Below are positions 79 to 13,117 of a stretch of 34,185 bases of DNA, piece by piece. The translations under genes and the position numbers were made by a program. Where the stretch lies: the NCBI GenBank assembly GCA_030916545.1, contig JAUPWI010000003.1, positions 1 through 34,185 of the forward strand, read 5' to 3'. Numbering within the stretch: the stretch's first letter is position 1; each line of letters begins with the position of its first letter. A model generated the notes under the pieces. The model was not told the DNA's origin. It did no database searches and worked only from the letters and a program-made list of their open reading frames with translations. The stretch is from Patescibacteria group bacterium. Its GTDB lineage: Bacteria; Patescibacteriota; Minisyncoccia; Moranbacterales; UBA1568.

Positions 79-98
79 GACAGCGGTTCAACCGCTAC
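79..98. repeat. 20-nt mini-hairpin repeat, copy 1 (GACAGCGGTTCAACCGCTAC)
   Basis: Identical 20/20 to 246-265. Internal stem AGCGG/CCGCT with a 5-nt loop. Lies 26 nt upstream of hairpin repeat A. Confidence 0.6.
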
Positions 99-123: not shown

Positions 124-208
124 GAATGGGAGAAGAAACTTCTCTTTTTTCTTGCGACGTGTTCGGAAACACCAGCATCAAAAAAAGAGAAGTTTCCTCT
201 CACATTCT
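124..208 (+). repeat. Long hairpin repeat A (apex variant 1a, forward)
   Basis: Arms 124-151 and 181-208 pair at about 26/28 positions. Apex 152-180 is CTTGCGACGTGTTCGGAAACACCAGCATC, flanked by T6 and A6 runs. Confidence 0.85.
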
Positions 209-317: not shown

Positions 318-393
318 GGAGGGTGGCTTTGGCTTTTTTCCGATGCTGGTGTTTCCGAACACGTCGCAAGGAAAAAAGTCAAAACCACCCTCC
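318..393 (-). repeat. Long hairpin repeat B (apex variant 1a, reverse)
   Basis: Apex 342-370 (GATGCTGGTGTTTCCGAACACGTCGCAAG) is the exact reverse complement of the A apex. Arms GGAGGGTGGCTTTGGCTTTTTTCC and GGAAAAAAGTCAAAACCACCCTCC pair with 2 mismatches. A T-run follows at 395-400. Confidence 0.85.
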
Positions 394-450: not shown

Positions 451-1380
451 TCACAAAGGGATGCTCATAGTTTCTTTGGGATCTGATATCCAGGTGAGGG
501 TCGTTCCTTGGCGTTCCCAGCGGCGAAGCCAGGAGAGTTGCCGACGGGCGTAGTGCCAGATGGCGTGCTCGAGTTCGATCCGCATGGTCTCTTGATCAAT
601 GGAACTTTGGAGCAATTGCGCGATGAAGCGATACTCGAGGCCGAAGCTCTCGAGGCGTTCCCAATCGATACCTTGTCCGTGAAGCCCCTCGACTTCCTCA
701 ATCATGCCGGATGCGAATCGGTTGAGAAGCCGTATTCTGATGCGTTCGCGGAGGACGTCTTTTGGAGGATTGAGGACGAGAATCGTGGAATGGTTTTCAG
801 CGGTTGATGGCTCGTGTTGAGTAACCGAAGGGACTGTGCCGAGAGCGGCGACGATTTCGAGAGCGCGGATGAGGCGGATCGGATTTTTCTGGTCGATAGT
901 TGCGGCCCTGGTCGGATCCTGTGCTTCGAGCAGTGTGTAGAGCTCATCGGCGGTCTTGGTGCTGAGGTGGTCTCGAAGGACCGGATCGGGCGGAACAGCC
1001 GGGAAACTCGTTCCTTCGAGAAGTGCTTGGATCCAAAAATGTGTGCCGCCGCAGATGAGAGGCTGTTTGCCACGAGCGCGGATATCAGTGATCACACGAT
1101 TGGCATCACGGAGGAAATCTGAGATATTGTACGCTTCGTTCGGGTCGGCGATATCGATGAGGTGGTGGCGGATGCCGCCGGAGATATATTCATCATCTGC
1201 CACCGATTCCGAATCCCGGAGCACCTTACCAGTGCCGATATCCATGCCGCTGTACACCTGGCGGCTATCGGCCGAGATGATTTCGCCATCCAGCCGATGC
1301 GCGAGTTCGATGGCCAGATCCGATTTGCCCGAGGCGGTCGGTCCGGCGATGACGATCAGTTTGTGAGGGGGTAATTCCAT
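451..1380 (-). CDS. miaA: tRNA dimethylallyltransferase (MiaA)
   Basis: 309-aa ORF. N-terminal P-loop IVIAGPTASGKS followed by ISADSRQVYSGMDIGTGK, typical of IPP transferases. Confidence 0.9.
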   Translation of the reverse strand: MELPPHKLIVIAGPTASGKSDLAIELAHRLDGEIISADSRQVYSGMDIGTGKVLRDSESVADDEYISGGIRHHLIDIADPNEAYNISDFLRDANRVITDIRARGKQPLICGGTHFWIQALLEGTSFPAVPPDPVLRDHLSTKTADELYTLLEAQDPTRAATIDQKNPIRLIRALEIVAALGTVPSVTQHEPSTAENHSTILVLNPPKDVLRERIRIRLLNRFASGMIEEVEGLHGQGIDWERLESFGLEYRFIAQLLQSSIDQETMRIELEHAIWHYARRQLSWLRRWERQGTTLTWISDPKETMSIPL

Positions 1381-1428: not shown

Positions 1429-1506
1429 AGGATGTGGTAAGGTATTCTTTCCCGATGCTGGTGTTTCTGAACACGTCGCAAGGGAAAGAATACCTTACCA
1501 CATCCT
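1429..1506 (-). repeat. Long hairpin repeat C (apex variant 1b, reverse)
   Basis: Perfect 24-bp arms AGGATGTGGTAAGGTATTCTTTCC / GGAAAGAATACCTTACCACATCCT. Apex 1454-1482 is GATGCTGGTGTTTCTGAACACGTCGCAAG. Confidence 0.9.
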
Positions 1507-1579
1507 GAAGCTTATATGAAGAGAGTACTCTGTATCGGGAGTAATATGATTTTTTAGGAATGTGTTGTTGGTTGAAGCT

Positions 1580-1655
1580 GGAAGGATAATTGCTCTTTTT
1601 TCCTTGCGACGTGTTCAGAAACACCAGCATCGGAAAAAAGAGCAATTATCCCTCC
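1580..1655 (+). repeat. Long hairpin repeat D (apex variant 1b, forward)
   Basis: Arms GGAAGGATAATTGCTCTTTTTTCC / GGAAAAAAGAGCAATTATCCCTCC pair at 23/24. Apex 1603-1631 is CTTGCGACGTGTTCAGAAACACCAGCATC. Confidence 0.9.
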
Positions 1656-1744
1656 TTCACGTTTCGGACACCTATCGTATCCCATAGTATCGTGCAGCAA
1701 TGCGCTGTTTTTGATACAGAATGTTCCTTCTAGTTGCTTTTTTG

Positions 1745-1799
1745 GCGCCTCGTATTTTTCTGAACACGTTGTAAGGGAAAGGATACTTTACCACATCCT
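1745..1799 (-). repeat. Truncated hairpin repeat E (paralog of C, left arm lost)
   Basis: The right half aligns to C (…TTCTGAACACGTTGTAAGGGAAAGGATACTTTACCACATCCT). No complementary left arm is present. Confidence 0.7.
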
Positions 1800-1900
1800 G
1801 AAGTGAACATAAAGAGCGCTCTTTACTGATGCATCAGGTCAGTAAAAGGAATATGATTTTTTCAGAAATGCTTTTCCTATGAGATTTGAGATAGATACTA

Positions 1901-1976
1901 AGGGAGTGAGGCTCCTCTTTTTTCTTGCGACGTGTTCAGAAACACCAGCATCAAAAAAAGAGAAGTCTCACTCCCT
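1901..1976 (+). repeat. Long hairpin repeat F (apex variant 1b, forward)
   Basis: Apex 1924-1952 is identical to the D apex. Arms AGGGAGTGAGGCTCCTCTTTTTT / AAAAAAAGAGAAGTCTCACTCCCT pair with about 3 mismatches. Confidence 0.85.
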
Positions 1977-2044
1977 CCATACTTGAGAAACCTTCTGTCT
2001 TAAAGTGTACGAATGATGGAGTGTAGAAATATATTCCTGATGAA

Positions 2045-2125
2045 GCGGAAGGCACTCTCTTGCTTTTTCTGATGCCCCGTATTTCCGAATACGCAGCAAG
2101 GAAAAAGGAAGAGAGAACCTTCCGC
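2045..2125 (-). repeat. Long hairpin repeat G (apex variant 2, reverse)
   Basis: Apex 2071-2100 is GATGCCCCGTATTTCCGAATACGCAGCAAG. Arms GCGGAAGGCACTCTCTTGCTTTTTC / GAAAAAGGAAGAGAGAACCTTCCGC. Lies 35 nt beyond the dnaE stop codon. Confidence 0.85.
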
Positions 2126-2159: not shown

Positions 2160-5100
2160 TTATCCGACTGATTCGACACCCTGGAGCGCACGTATCTGTT
2201 CGAGGGTCGCTTCTTCAGGATCTATGTAGAAGGGTGTATCGATGGTCGTGCCGTGTATCTTGACGAGGACTTTCGTTTCCCCTTTCGGAACGGTTCGAAG
2301 AAAAGCCGAGAGTTCACTGATTAATTTTGCATCTGTTTGTTCCTGAAGGGTAATCAGAAGTTTTGGAGTCGAGGTAGCATTTTCGTCCATTTGAGTCTTC
2401 TCTGAAGCAGATTTTTCACGGGTGATGCGTACGCGTTCGAATTGCGTCAGGGTATCGAGAGAGAGACGTTCAGCGCTTTCGGCAATGCAACGGAGTTGAC
2501 CATCCTTGTGTGAAACTCGGGCATCAATAAGTACGATATCATCTTCTTTCCAGAAACCATCGGTCTGCTCGGCCGTTTTGCCGAAGACGAGGACTTCAGT
2601 CCGACCAGTGAGATCCTCGAGACCGATGAAAAACATCGGATGACCGTTTTTGGTGATCATACGTCTGACTGATGTGACGATACCGCCGATACGGACCCGA
2701 CTTTCGTTTTCTTGTTTTTCTATGTCGATGAGAGCCGTGGTGGTTTCTTTCAAGTAATGACGGTAATCGGAGGCTGGATGTCCAGTAACATAGAGTCCGA
2801 GGAGTTCCTTTTCCCAGGTAAGACGTTGTTGTTTGGAGGCTGGGATAGCTCGTGCGAGATTGATTTTTGTCTTGGGAAGTGGCATAGAGCCAAAAAGACT
2901 GTCGGTATGTGTCTCGGCAAGAGTAGAGGATTGTTTTCCGTAGCGTATGATGGCGTCGATGCTCTCAAGAATTTGTTCGCGTTCACCCAGGGTGTCAAGT
3001 GCTCCAACCTTCGTCAGCGCTTCGACTGATTTTTTGTTAAGATCCTTGGTCTGGACGCGTTCGACGAAGTCTTCGAGACTTTTGAATTTCCCGCCACGCT
3101 TCCGTTCCTTGACGATCTCTTCCGCACAGACCGAACCGACATTCTTGATCGCCTGAAGACCGAACCGGATGCGCTCGATATCGTCGTCTCCCTGGATGAC
3201 CGCGAAGCTCTCGAAGCTTTCATTGATATCTGGTTGTAGAACATCAAGGCCGATTTCGCGTGCTTCTCGTACTTCGATAGCGATGCGGTCGGTATCGTTC
3301 TGATCGCTTGTCAGGAGCGCGGCCATGAATTCGGCTGGATAGTGGGCCTTGAGATAGGCGGTCTGATAACCGATCATCGCGTAGCAAGCGGCGTGAGATC
3401 GGTTGAAACCATAGCCAGCAAACGGTTCGATGAAGGCGAAGACCTGTTCGGCGACGTGTTTGGTGATGCCGTGCTTGACGCAGCCCTCGATGAATTTGAT
3501 GCGTTGTTCGGCGACGAGTTCTTTGATTTTCTTTCCGACGGCTTTGCGGAGCACATCGGCTTCGCCGAGCGAGAAACCGGCAAGGTCGCGGGCGATCTGC
3601 ATAAGCTGTTCCTGATAGACGGCGACGCCGTAGGTGTTCTTCAGAATCGGTTCGAGTTTCGGGTGGAGATATTCGATTTGTTTGGTGCCGTGCTTGCCGC
3701 CGATGAAATCGGGGATGTATTCCATTGGTCCTGGGCGGTAGAGTGCGACCATGGCGATGATATCCTCAAAGACCGTTGGCTTGAGCTGTTTCAGGTAGCG
3801 CTTCATGCCGGTCGATTCGAGCTGGAAGACGCCGGTCGTCCGGGCTTCCTGGAGCACCCGATAGGCCCCCTCATCATCGATCGGCAGCTTGTCCATCACA
3901 TCGGAAACGGAGGCGGTATCCGGGTCGAGCCCGAGCTCATGCGCCAGCGCTTCGAATTTGCCGAGCGCGCGGACGATGCGAAGGGTGTTTTGGATGATGG
4001 TGAGGTTTTTGAGACCGAGAAAATCCATCTTGAGGAGACCGATCTTTTCGACGGCATTATTCTTGGTCGAAGCGGCATACTGGGTGACGACGCCTTCGCG
4101 TGAACCGGAAATCCGTTGAAGGGGGGTGTATTCGGTGACCGGGTCCTTGGTGATGACGACGCCGCAGGCATGCATCGAGGCATGACGGGCCAGCCCTTCG
4201 ATCTTCTGGGCATTGTCGACGAGGCGGCGGACTTCGGCATTGCCTTCGTAATGCGTCTTGAATTCCGGAACTTCCTCCAGCGCCTTCCTGATGGAAGTAA
4301 ACATCGGGATCATTTTGGCGGTCTGGTCGCAAAGAGACAGTGGTATGCCGAGCGCGCGACCGACATCGCGGATCGCACCGCGGGCGGCCATGGTTCCGAA
4401 GGTGATGATTTGTGCGACGTGGTCGGCCCCGAAACGTTCGCGGACGTAGTTTAGGACGTCTTCGCGATGATCATCGGCGAAGTCCATGTCGACATCGGGC
4501 ATGGAGATACGTTCTGGATTGAGGAAGCGTTCAAAGAGGAGATCGTATTGGATTGGGTCGAGGTTGGTAATGCCAGTCAGATAGGCGACGAAGGAACCGG
4601 CGGCCGAACCGCGGCCTGGACCAACAACGACGCCGTTGTCTTTCGCCCAGTTGACGAAGTCCTGGACGATGAGGAAGTATGATGCAAAGCCAGTCTTTCC
4701 GATGATATCGAGCTCGTAGTTGAGGCGAGTGAGCTGTTCTTCCGTCGTCGGAGCATCGCCGAAACGTTCTTTGAGTCCCATTTCGCAGAGCTGGCGCAAA
4801 TAGCCATCGGGGGTGACGCCTTCCGGAAGCGGATACACAGGTAGGTGATTGACCCCGAAGGTGAAGGAGAAATGACAGGCATCGACGATTTTTTGGGTAT
4901 TCTCGATAGCATCCGGAAAGTCTTTAAAAATCTCAATCATCTCTTCGGAGCTCTTGAGTGAGAGGTCAAGCGACATCATAGAGAATCGGTCACGGTCCTC
5001 AACACGTTTGTTATCCCGGATGCAGAGGAGTGTGTCTTGGATACTGGCGTCTTCGCGGCGGACATAGTGCACGTCATTCGCAGCGACGAGAGGAATATTC

Positions 5101-5690
5101 GTCTCCCGTGAAAGCGCGATGAGGCCTTGGTTGACCGCCGCCTGTGTCTCGTGATCGAAATGCGGCTGGATTTCAAGGTAGAAGTTACCCGCTCCAAAAA
5201 TATCCTGGTATTCGAGAGCAGCGAGTTTGGCGCGATCATAGTCACCATAGATGAGCTCGGAAGGCACTTCTCCTTGAAGCGATCCGGACAAGGCGATGAG
5301 TCCCTCGCTGTATTGTCGGAGGAGTGCTTTGTCGGTTCGGGCTTTGTAGTAGAAACCGTCGAGCTGTGCGATGGAAATGATCTTGAGGAGATTTTTATAG
5401 CCGGTCTCGTTTTTGACGAGGAGCACGATAGTGTGCCGACGGCGGTCTTCGGCCGTATTGTTCTTACTGTGAAGATCGTGACAGACGTACATCTCGGCTC
5501 CGATGATTGCCTTGATTCCGTAATCCTTGGCTTTGGTATAAAACTCAACCGCTCCGTACAGAGCCGAGGTATCGGTCAGGGCGAGCGAAGTCTGCCCGAG
5601 TTCTTTGGCGCGTGCTAAAAGTTCTTCTGGCCGGCCGAGTGCGGTCAAAAGAGTGTAATGCGAGTGGACATGGAGGTGGGTGAAGTTCAT
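2160..5690 (-). CDS. dnaE: DNA polymerase III alpha subunit (DnaE)
   Basis: 1176-aa ORF. N-terminal PHP motif FTHLHVHSHYTLL, a Pol IIIalpha core (…MPDVDMDF…), and a C-terminal OB-fold region. Confidence 0.95.
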   Translation of the reverse strand: MNFTHLHVHSHYTLLTALGRPEELLARAKELGQTSLALTDTSALYGAVEFYTKAKDYGIKAIIGAEMYVCHDLHSKNNTAEDRRRHTIVLLVKNETGYKNLLKIISIAQLDGFYYKARTDKALLRQYSEGLIALSGSLQGEVPSELIYGDYDRAKLAALEYQDIFGAGNFYLEIQPHFDHETQAAVNQGLIALSRETNIPLVAANDVHYVRREDASIQDTLLCIRDNKRVEDRDRFSMMSLDLSLKSSEEMIEIFKDFPDAIENTQKIVDACHFSFTFGVNHLPVYPLPEGVTPDGYLRQLCEMGLKERFGDAPTTEEQLTRLNYELDIIGKTGFASYFLIVQDFVNWAKDNGVVVGPGRGSAAGSFVAYLTGITNLDPIQYDLLFERFLNPERISMPDVDMDFADDHREDVLNYVRERFGADHVAQIITFGTMAARGAIRDVGRALGIPLSLCDQTAKMIPMFTSIRKALEEVPEFKTHYEGNAEVRRLVDNAQKIEGLARHASMHACGVVITKDPVTEYTPLQRISGSREGVVTQYAASTKNNAVEKIGLLKMDFLGLKNLTIIQNTLRIVRALGKFEALAHELGLDPDTASVSDVMDKLPIDDEGAYRVLQEARTTGVFQLESTGMKRYLKQLKPTVFEDIIAMVALYRPGPMEYIPDFIGGKHGTKQIEYLHPKLEPILKNTYGVAVYQEQLMQIARDLAGFSLGEADVLRKAVGKKIKELVAEQRIKFIEGCVKHGITKHVAEQVFAFIEPFAGYGFNRSHAACYAMIGYQTAYLKAHYPAEFMAALLTSDQNDTDRIAIEVREAREIGLDVLQPDINESFESFAVIQGDDDIERIRFGLQAIKNVGSVCAEEIVKERKRGGKFKSLEDFVERVQTKDLNKKSVEALTKVGALDTLGEREQILESIDAIIRYGKQSSTLAETHTDSLFGSMPLPKTKINLARAIPASKQQRLTWEKELLGLYVTGHPASDYRHYLKETTTALIDIEKQENESRVRIGGIVTSVRRMITKNGHPMFFIGLEDLTGRTEVLVFGKTAEQTDGFWKEDDIVLIDARVSHKDGQLRCIAESAERLSLDTLTQFERVRITREKSASEKTQMDENATSTPKLLITLQEQTDAKLISELSAFLRTVPKGETKVLVKIHGTTIDTPFYIDPEEATLEQIRALQGVESVG

Positions 5691-5892: not shown

Positions 5893-5912
5893 TATCGGAA
5901 ATTCATTTTTAC

Positions 5913-5995
5913 TTTCGAAGAGTAGAAGTGACTTTTTCCTTGCTGCGTATTCGGAAATACGGGGCATCAGAAAAAGTCACTTCTACTCTTCGAAA
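5913..5995 (+). repeat. Long hairpin repeat H3 (apex variant 2, forward)
   Basis: Perfect 25-bp arms TTTCGAAGAGTAGAAGTGACTTTTT / AAAAAGTCACTTCTACTCTTCGAAA. Apex 5939-5968 (CTTGCTGCGTATTCGGAAATACGGGGCATC) is the exact reverse complement of the G apex. Confidence 0.9.
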
Positions 5996-6148
5996 CATTT
6001 TTTCAACAAAAAATCGCACCAAAATGGAGCGAAAGAGAATTCGAAACTGGGTATTCGAGGTTGGACATGATGATGGTTTCTCTCAGCGCCCGGATCGCTC
6101 CATGGGGTTTGCAGAGAAGCTTAGGATAAGCCCAGTATATCATTTTTT

Positions 6149-11692: not shown

Positions 11693-13117
11693 ATGAAAAG
11701 CTTCAATATTTATTTGTTTTTGGTGTATCTTTTTCTGCTACCGTTACAAACGGTGTATTTGTTGCGTGAGCCGATGATTAGTGGGGAGAAGTGGCAGTAT
11801 GGGACTATTGGCATTTATGCTACGGATATTTTGCTGATTCTGATACTTGGATGGTATGGCGTGAGTCGATGGAAGAAGCAGGGTAATATTGAGGGACGAA
11901 GACGTTGGTTGGCGCGTTTGGCTGGAGCGCGAAAACAGCTTTTTCTGATGCCCTTTGCTTCCGAGCAAACAGCAAGGAAAAAGTTCGTTTTTGTGCTCCA
12001 GCATGCGCTGAATCCGTGGTCTCTGAAACGAAGTATCTTCTGTATCAGTTTCATTCTTTGGGCCGGCCTCTCGATATTTTGGGCGCCTGATCGGGTGTTG
12101 GCCGGATACTTTTTCGTAAAGCTGCTTTTGGCGGTCGGAGTCTTCTTTCTGATTCGTTCATTCGGCAGGCGGGAAATAGGCCTGATCATAACAGTGCTCT
12201 TCATGGGAGCGGTACTCGTGAGTGTGTTCGGCATCGGGCAATTCTTGCTGCAAGGCGCATTCGCTTCGTCGTGGCTCGGGATGAGTGGACAGGAAGCGTG
12301 GCAAGCCGGGACATCGGTACTCAAGAACGAAGCTGGTCGTTGGCTGCGGGCGTATGGTACGTTTCCGCACCCGAATATGCTCGGGGGGTATCTTAGCGTC
12401 GTCTTGGTCTTGGGAATAGGGTATCTTACGCAATCGGCACTTTCGATTAAGAAACGATTGCTTTTCGAGGGAGGGGGCATTGTCATCCTCCTTGGTCTCG
12501 TCCTCACTTTTTCTCGTACGGCGTGGCTGGGGATTGTACTCGGGATTACCCTGGTGGGATTTCATGCCTGGAGAGAGCGCGAACCCCGGATCCAGAGGCG
12601 GTTTTTGCAAGTCGTTTTCGCGCTCGGATTAGCCGGACTCGTTTTTGGATCCATTTTGCACGAGCAGATTTTTCCGAGATTCGATACTGCGACAATCGGG
12701 CAGGAAGGTTCGGTAGCGGAGCGGGTCGTATCGTTTCAGGACACCTGGACGCTTATCGGGAAGCACCCCTTCATCGGTGTCGGTGTCGGGAATTCCACGG
12801 TACAACTCATGAAAGAAAATCCCGGTCGTCCGATTTGGGGAATCCAGCCGGCACACAATGTCCCTCTCGTCATTTGGTCAGAGCTCGGCCTGATCGGACT
12901 CTTCCTGTGTATCGGATGCACAGCGTCTTTTTTATTTTCGCTTTCGAAATTTGCGATCTTTGACCTTCAGTCTGCGATTTTCATCGCGCTTCTCCCAAGC
13001 CTCTTCTTCGATCACTGGCTCTGGACCTCGCATTCCGGTCTCGTATTTCTTTTCTTGTCGTTCGGACTGATACGAAGCAGGCATGGTGGCGAGGGTATGA
13101 GACCGGATGGTGATTGA
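11693..13117 (+). CDS. O-antigen ligase-like (Wzy_C) membrane protein
   Basis: Polytopic. Has FSRTAWLG and PAHNVPL motifs typical of the O-antigen ligase family. ATG at 11693 (TTG at 11687 is in frame). Carries hairpin repeat I in frame. Confidence 0.75.
   Translation: MKSFNIYLFLVYLFLLPLQTVYLLREPMISGEKWQYGTIGIYATDILLILILGWYGVSRWKKQGNIEGRRRWLARLAGARKQLFLMPFASEQTARKKFVFVLQHALNPWSLKRSIFCISFILWAGLSIFWAPDRVLAGYFFVKLLLAVGVFFLIRSFGRREIGLIITVLFMGAVLVSVFGIGQFLLQGAFASSWLGMSGQEAWQAGTSVLKNEAGRWLRAYGTFPHPNMLGGYLSVVLVLGIGYLTQSALSIKKRLLFEGGGIVILLGLVLTFSRTAWLGIVLGITLVGFHAWREREPRIQRRFLQVVFALGLAGLVFGSILHEQIFPRFDTATIGQEGSVAERVVSFQDTWTLIGKHPFIGVGVGNSTVQLMKENPGRPIWGIQPAHNVPLVIWSELGLIGLFLCIGCTASFLFSLSKFAIFDLQSAIFIALLPSLFFDHWLWTSHSGLVFLFLSFGLIRSRHGGEGMRPDGD
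11921..12002 (-). repeat. Hairpin repeat I (apex variant 3, reverse) inside a coding sequence
   Basis: Apex 11948-11977 is GATGCCCTTTGCTTCCGAGCAAACAGCAAG. Outer arms GCTGGAGC…/…GCTCCAGC pair imperfectly. Translated as …ARKQLFLMPFASEQTARKKFVFV…. Confidence 0.75.

Follow-up and report, generated by a model that had tools for sequence, protein, structure and literature searches.

A family of hairpin repeats in one genus of Candidatus Moranbacteria, with a conserved apex, copy-specific stems and an array probably shaped by recombination between apices

The window analysed here, a stretch of 34,185 nucleotides, is contig JAUPWI010000003.1 (C49) of a 904-kb genome in 92 contigs (G000), and the congeneric metagenome-assembled genomes (MAGs) belong to Candidatus Moranbacteria and come from wastewater-effluent metagenomes. 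The locus of interest is bounded by miaA (451-1380, minus strand) and dnaE (2160-5690, minus strand), both confirmed with Pfam, and the spacer between them carries an array of five elements, C, D, E, F and G, of which positions 1429-1976 form the middle (Table 1). G closes the array as the seventh hairpin, 31 nt past the dnaE stop codon. Beyond miaA, hairpin B lies 52 nt past the miaA stop codon and hairpin A starts 60 nt past the stop codon of a LamG-like gene on the plus strand, which ends at base 63, runs past the left contig edge and is full-length in the sister population L141. Hairpin A is present in G003 and missing from G008 and L141. It is bracketed by two copies of a small palindrome, GACAGCGGTTCAACCGCTAC, which occurs four times in G000 (window 79-98 and 246-265, C1:14958 and C18:103); in L141 the segment between these copies has only 29 nt, is apparently inverted and does not hold hairpin A. 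No conserved small ORFs or promoters were found in the array spacers.

Table 1. Hairpins, tandem units and related features of the window (bit scores are those of the covariance model of the family).
Feature	Position	Strand	Description
Hairpin A	124..208	+	Type-1 apex, CTTGC..GCATC on the plus strand; 85.5 bits
Hairpin B	318..393	-	Type-1 apex on the minus strand; 87.3 bits
Hairpin C	1429..1506	-	Type-1 apex; stem of 25 bp without mismatches; left end of duplicated unit 1
Tandem unit 1	1464..1756	.	3' half of the C apex, C right arm, spacer, D, post-D sequence, G-like left arm
Spacer motif AGTAATATGATTTTTT-AGGAATG	1540..1563	.	Conserved; paralogue at 1847-1871
Hairpin D	1580..1655	+	Type-1 apex; exact core match at 1603-1631 (+)
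E, chimeric joint	1734..1799	-	G-like (type 2) left half, C-like (type 1) right half; arms non-complementary
Tandem unit 2	1757..2078	.	3' half of the E apex, E right arm, spacer, F, post-F sequence, G left arm and 5' half of the G apex
Hairpin F	1901..1976	+	Type-1 apex, the same as that of D; exact core match at 1924-1952 (+)
Hairpin G	2045..2125	-	Type-2 apex (CTTGCTGCGTATTCGGAAATACGGGGCATC on the minus strand); 84.9 bits
Family member outside the array	5910..5997	+	Type 2; 92.7 bits
Family member in O-antigen-ligase-like ORF	11919..12005	-	Type 2; in frame

The original prediction, made by reading the letters of the window, had placed hairpins at A, B, C, D and F, and all five are real by several measures. 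The window contains five occurrences of a 29-nt core, CTTGCGACGTGTTCAGAAACACCAGCATC, when up to one mismatch is allowed, against none expected from shuffled sequences (the match in C, at 1454-1482 on the minus strand, is exact), and the arms are complementary at 100% of positions in C, 96% in D, 91% in F, 93% in A and 92% in B. These five and G fold stably over about 80 nt, with energies of -40 to -54 kcal/mol and z-scores of -7.3 to -11.3; E alone has no fold (z +0.8). A copy of the family is a palindromic interspersed repeat of about 85-100 nt, built from a conserved apex of 29-30 nt that is itself base-paired, a run of T5-6 on one side of it and of A5-6 on the other, and an outer stem of 16-20 bp that is specific to the copy; the conserved apex module measures about 43 nt. 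Four apex types coexist under the common pattern YTYGC..TCRGAA..GGCATC, and their inner helix of 5-6 bp covaries freely from type to type. In a 20-copy alignment, RNAalifold found compensatory changes in 25 of 31 pairs.

From the same alignment a covariance model was made and searched in the congeners and in other genomes of the taxonomic family. All nine congeneric MAGs contain the hairpin family, with 1-42 matches per genome, as does one (G029) of the 91 further genomes searched in the taxonomic family; G000 holds about 21-26 copies of two apex types. These copy numbers are underestimates because the repeats fragment short-read assemblies. Many contigs begin or end in or right beside hairpin copies, in G008 (C90, C83, C57, C25 and C40) and in G000 (C49, C63 and C30). 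At the gathering score Rfam returned only tRNAs and no match to the hairpin family, and below threshold (E<=5) just generic noise resembling miRNA hairpins; a literature search for the family gave nothing relevant, and a metagenome scan gave seven contigs. The exact type-2 pattern, searched across 185,579 species, is confined to these MAGs and to scattered unrelated genomes, where the matches look like chance. It had no match in viral contigs, and a phage origin of the family was rejected on that ground. Judged by these searches, the family is specific to one genus of tiny-genome Moranbacteria.

How the stems evolve was followed in 15-18 orthologue groups, in which the pairs of the outer stem were compared. 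Both sides had changed with Watson-Crick pairing kept in 48 pairs, one side had changed to give G.U in 21, and in 12 a one-sided change restored a mismatch to Watson-Crick; 31 pairs were broken by a one-sided and 8 by a two-sided change, so that 48 compensated double changes stand against 39 breaking ones. Divergence amounts to 14.1% in the stems (186/1321) and to 5.6% in the apex (47/838). The orthologue of B in G008 has compensated changes, and so do the stems of the D orthologues in G008, G003, G007 and G005. Among paralogues, D and F have identical apices and share 9 of 16 stem positions, in agreement with the expectation of identical apices on different stems. These counts uphold the prediction of stems that diverge yet stay paired, and they indicate that the two arms of a stem change together while the apex is held. 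Pairing would persist through selection for folding, through palindrome-templated (template-switch) correction or through both.

Within the array, C+D and E+F had been proposed as paralogous units about 300 bp apart, and the pairwise alignment suggested as a check bears this out as a tandem duplication: the units, together with their tails, match in the same order for some 300 nt and are about 71% identical, with a spacer similarity above chance. Unit 1, unit 2 and the single unit of G007 also align collinearly three ways, and it is on this alignment that the homology of the post-D and post-F sequences rests, the two being too diverged for direct alignment. The near identity claimed for the right arms of C and E holds at 85% over the 60 nt of half-apex and arm (1464-1523 against 1757-1816), and the right arm of E is 92% complementary to the left arm of C. 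As for the motif said to be shared by the spacers, its similarity exceeds chance (the local score is 31, whereas shuffled sequences averaged 14.7 and peaked at 27, so that 0 of 2000 reached it), but the pattern in which it had been written was off by one base, because the match needs a 1-nt indel. The idea that this motif is a decayed half-apex was not backed by the covariance model.

A different history emerges for E, which had been thought to have lost its left arm. Its apex is degenerate yet complete, T-run included (1734-1780), and gives a partial model match of 10.2 bits; its left half (TTGCTTTTT-TGGCGCCTCGTATTT) shares homology with the left T-run and half-apex of G, at a score that 0 of 2000 shuffles reach, and its right half does so with C. 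The tail of unit 1 in turn aligns with the left arm of G, and the boundaries of the duplication run from apex to apex, not from pair to pair. Because unit 1 ends in G-like sequence and E joins a G-type left half to a C-type right half, the array would have grown by unequal homologous recombination between apices, the conserved modules of about 43 nt in two different hairpins serving as the sites of exchange. These homologies make E a chimera, and probably the seam left where a C-type apex crossed over unequally with one of G type, an element that would never have had a matching arm.

The converse product appears in the sister population L141, where a single hairpin combines the left arm of D (GGAAGGATAATCGCTC) with the right arm of F (GAGAAGTCTCACTCCC) through their shared apex; the intervening 321 bp are deleted and the arms pair poorly. 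Its sequence identifies it as the likely deletion product of the same apex recombination, which, run backwards, would leave just such a chimeric hairpin. Other genomes display further variants of the array: G007 has a single unduplicated unit and keeps just the right arm of C, G003 has two hairpins, and the C unit is gone from G008 and L141. Another variable place is the spacer at C52:3966-4076 of G000, where a single arm similar to the G006 copy is all that remains; the orthologous spacers hold differing hairpins in G008/G002, G003 and G006, with different stems and opposite orientation, and such spacers are hot spots of turnover. In the array itself, GAGAAACCTTCTGTCT (post-F, 1984-1999) and GAGAGAACCTTCCGCAT (right arm of G, 2108-2124) are direct repeats, of which G007 has one copy, joined to post-G sequence; this hints either at a deletion scar or at a right arm of G that is native sequence.

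Taken as a whole, the best explanation, and one that we consider probable, is that of a genus-specific hairpin family whose array was recombined at the apices, in which the single hairpin is the dispersed unit and which represents selfish DNA of the REP/RPE kind. The last part of this account draws on the strand that folds. On the strand that reads CTTGC..GCATC, stem positions 6-21 contain 99 A.C mismatches against 38 G.U, and the complementary strand folds more stably in 95 of 122 copies, by 4.2 kcal/mol on average; these counts are inflated by copies related by descent and are not phylogenetically independent, and the mismatches that differ from one orthologue to another show a weak bias (33 against 24). 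The wobble and energy asymmetries point to one folded strand, GATGC..GCAAG. With gene contexts assigned by a simple ORF heuristic, no orientation bias was seen relative to genes in tandem contexts (32 copies co-oriented, 28 anti-oriented) or to GC skew (54 against 65), and 18 copies sit between divergent genes. Because folding is strand-specific and orientation is random, the single-strand imprint of a selfish repeat fits better than a role in mRNA, and we infer that the family is selfish DNA similar to REP and RPE elements. A single-stranded form with the polarity GATGC..UUUCCGAA..GCAAG would fold, and a putative factor would recognise its apex.

The hairpins could instead serve the host as cis elements of RNA or DNA (protein-binding sites, 3'-end stabilisers, insulators or terminators), with the array arising by ordinary duplication and being kept by selection. 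Orthologous copies do hold their apex and their pairing where the flanking genes are just 70-90% identical, the compensated changes are far above chance, and many copies lie 7-60 nt downstream of stop codons, while the subfamily of G009 has the A-run, GC-rich foot and T-run of a bidirectional terminator. The copy within the O-antigen-ligase-like ORF is read through in G000, G006, G008 and G005 (about 28 codons are missing at this site in G004, G007 and G009, and G001 is too diverged there to score), and its nucleotide sequence, at about 90% identity, has been preserved more closely than the protein that encloses it, at 52-73%; the long retention of intact, compensated orthologues, one of them within a gene, could equally reflect a function for the host. 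Against this, orientation is random with respect to transcription while folding is strand-specific, copies occur in places where termination would do harm, namely within a gene and between genes that diverge, and decayed half-copies and differences in copy number between close strains are common. As a general role, termination was rejected, given that U-tracts are absent from most G000 copies, that canonical terminators adjoin the hairpins and that one copy lies in a gene. A host-serving function of the family as a whole is thus unlikely.

For the family as a whole, no enzyme that would mobilise it came to light. A Y1 transposase (IS200-like, PF01797) is encoded in 3 of 10 genomes, and the covariance model found no hairpin copies beside it in these three; a RAYT/IS200 element as mobiliser was rejected on this distribution and for want of flanking hairpins. 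The copy in G000 (C4:2623-2970; L127 1450-1884, minus strand) is an intact transposase of 144 aa with HUH and Tyr motifs, and a fragment lies on C62. The genes bracketed by hairpin copies are housekeeping genes in a non-exhaustive genome search (miaA, a SufD-like gene, ruvA and mreB). Arm-like direct repeats (third arm copies), sought as target-site duplications, are no commoner in the flanks than in controls, and no clean pre-insertion empty site was found: G009 set against G004, and G000 against G008 and L141, yielded only diverged spacers or deletion products. Since target duplications and a clean empty site were not seen, transposition of the hairpins is something that we can only infer, from the related stems that occur at unlinked loci. 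Another repeat, of about 120-200 nt with inverted ends AAAGCAAGGATACTTT / AAAGTATCCTTGCTTT, lies beside a hairpin copy (L058 2650-2830, G009:C8), is found at no fewer than six loci in G004 and looks like a MITE.

One could also suppose that the apex module is the sole heritable core, and that each new copy gains its own stem at the landing site by recombination or by fold-back copying of the flank; the apex would come to lie by foreign sequence through apex-to-apex or illegitimate recombination, as in E and the D/F hairpin of L141. Two observations hint in this direction, namely that the right arm of G is collinear with native G007 sequence and that native bases may form the outermost pairs of A, but both can also be read as remnants of deletion. 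If true, such a process would amount to the propagation of a repeat without a transposase, with a new stem at each site; we regard it as quite improbable. Insertion of the apex into the loops of existing terminators was rejected, because the empty orthologous sites never have the same stem without the apex.

That two facing hairpins are the functional or mobile unit, as the original prediction had suggested, is very doubtful. By this account C+D and E+F would be two insertions or duplicates of a composite of about 225 bp, comparable to a REPIN or to a MITE with hairpin ends. A genome-wide survey of 122 distinct copies in 11 genomes, with neighbours defined as lying within 400 nt, found a neighbour for 38 copies (31%), and the clustering of the hairpins is real; the remaining 69% are singletons, and the 20 close pairs fall into all orientation classes (nine plus-minus, six minus-plus and five tandem) with gaps of 22-234 nt, the outcome that the original prediction had itself given as one that would refute the pair as the unit. 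Inverted neighbours are common (15 of the 20), a block copy of one pair occupies a second locus (G009, L035 and L057), and the layout of C (minus) and D (plus) between miaA and dnaE recurs in G003; however, the seven copies of the young G009 subfamily have only the single hairpin in common, their similarity ending at its foot (A-run to T-run), the unit duplicated between dnaE and miaA runs from apex to apex, and no RAYT-like gene is flanked by hairpins. The single hairpin, as these copies show, is the unit that is dispersed. In G009 neighbouring hairpins are almost always of different apex types. Instability of direct neighbours with identical apices would explain why those that survive are mostly inverted or of different types. 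An invertible apex was rejected as well: the stem asymmetries (bulges) follow the orientation of the apex, from which it appears that whole elements were inverted and not the tip.

That the repeated units are artefacts of short-read MAG assembly, by expansion or collapse of repeats, is hardly credible: contigs in G000 and its sister assemblies often end at hairpin copies and the repeats do disturb assembly, but the independent MAG G008 reproduces the D-E-F-G order at 94-97% identity, the paralogous units are too diverged for an assembler to confuse (only about 71% identical), and no internal contradiction appears in the variants that G007, G003 and L141 carry.

Proteobacteria and Rickettsia are the main groups from which interspersed palindromic repeats have been described; in the present family, tens of such repeats are tolerated by a CPR bacterium with a reduced genome of about 0.9 Mb. 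A conserved tip of 43 nt would suffice for unequal crossover, both products of which seem to have been caught, the duplication joint in G000 and the deletion joint in the sister population, each with mismatched arms. The family may mark variation at the level of strains, and it is one cause of the fragmentation of MAG assemblies. A factor recognising the tip, were one to be found, would establish in uncultured ultra-small bacteria a new system of the repeat-host or repeat-mobiliser kind.

Among known systems, the REP/BIME/REPIN-RAYT elements of Enterobacteria and Pseudomonas resemble the family in that they too are short palindromes outside genes, number in the tens and lie for the most part after genes or between convergent ones. 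Both often form clusters of alternating orientation, recombine readily and probably have one specific strand folded. The two differ in that REPs conserve the stem with a 5' GTAG foot and vary the loop, whereas the 122 copies compared here conserve only the apex and the T/A runs and have copy-specific stems; there is also no fixed spacing of doublets as in REPINs (gaps of 22-234 nt, 69% singletons), and the Y1_Tnp gene, in 3 of 10 genomes, is not flanked by hairpins as a RAYT is. The intrinsic terminator, with its hairpin and U-tract at 3' ends and never in genes, does not describe the family either, and the subfamily of G009 has A/T-run flanks. Rickettsia palindromic elements (RPE) are likewise palindromic repeats of about 100 nt in a reduced genome, with no known mobiliser, and have copies both between genes and in frame within genes, of which a single in-gene copy was seen here; the present family is set apart by lineage (CPR) and by design, since RPE families are defined by overall sequence. 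MITEs such as Correia/NEMIS share the small size, the non-autonomous dispersal, the inverted-repeat ends and the occurrence in either orientation, but have conserved termini and target-site duplications, whereas in this family the outer ends differ from copy to copy, a search for such duplications gave none and, in a non-exhaustive genome search, no parent IS is evident. Compared with REPs and MITEs the design is thus inverted, the structured tip being conserved and the stems free but paired. By analogy of design only, the family is also like the protein-binding hairpins of the iron-responsive-element type, which conserve an apical loop or the geometry of an internal loop on a free but paired stem; IREs, however, are orientation-bound elements of an mRNA regulon, whereas these hairpins are random in orientation, clustered, decaying and recombining.
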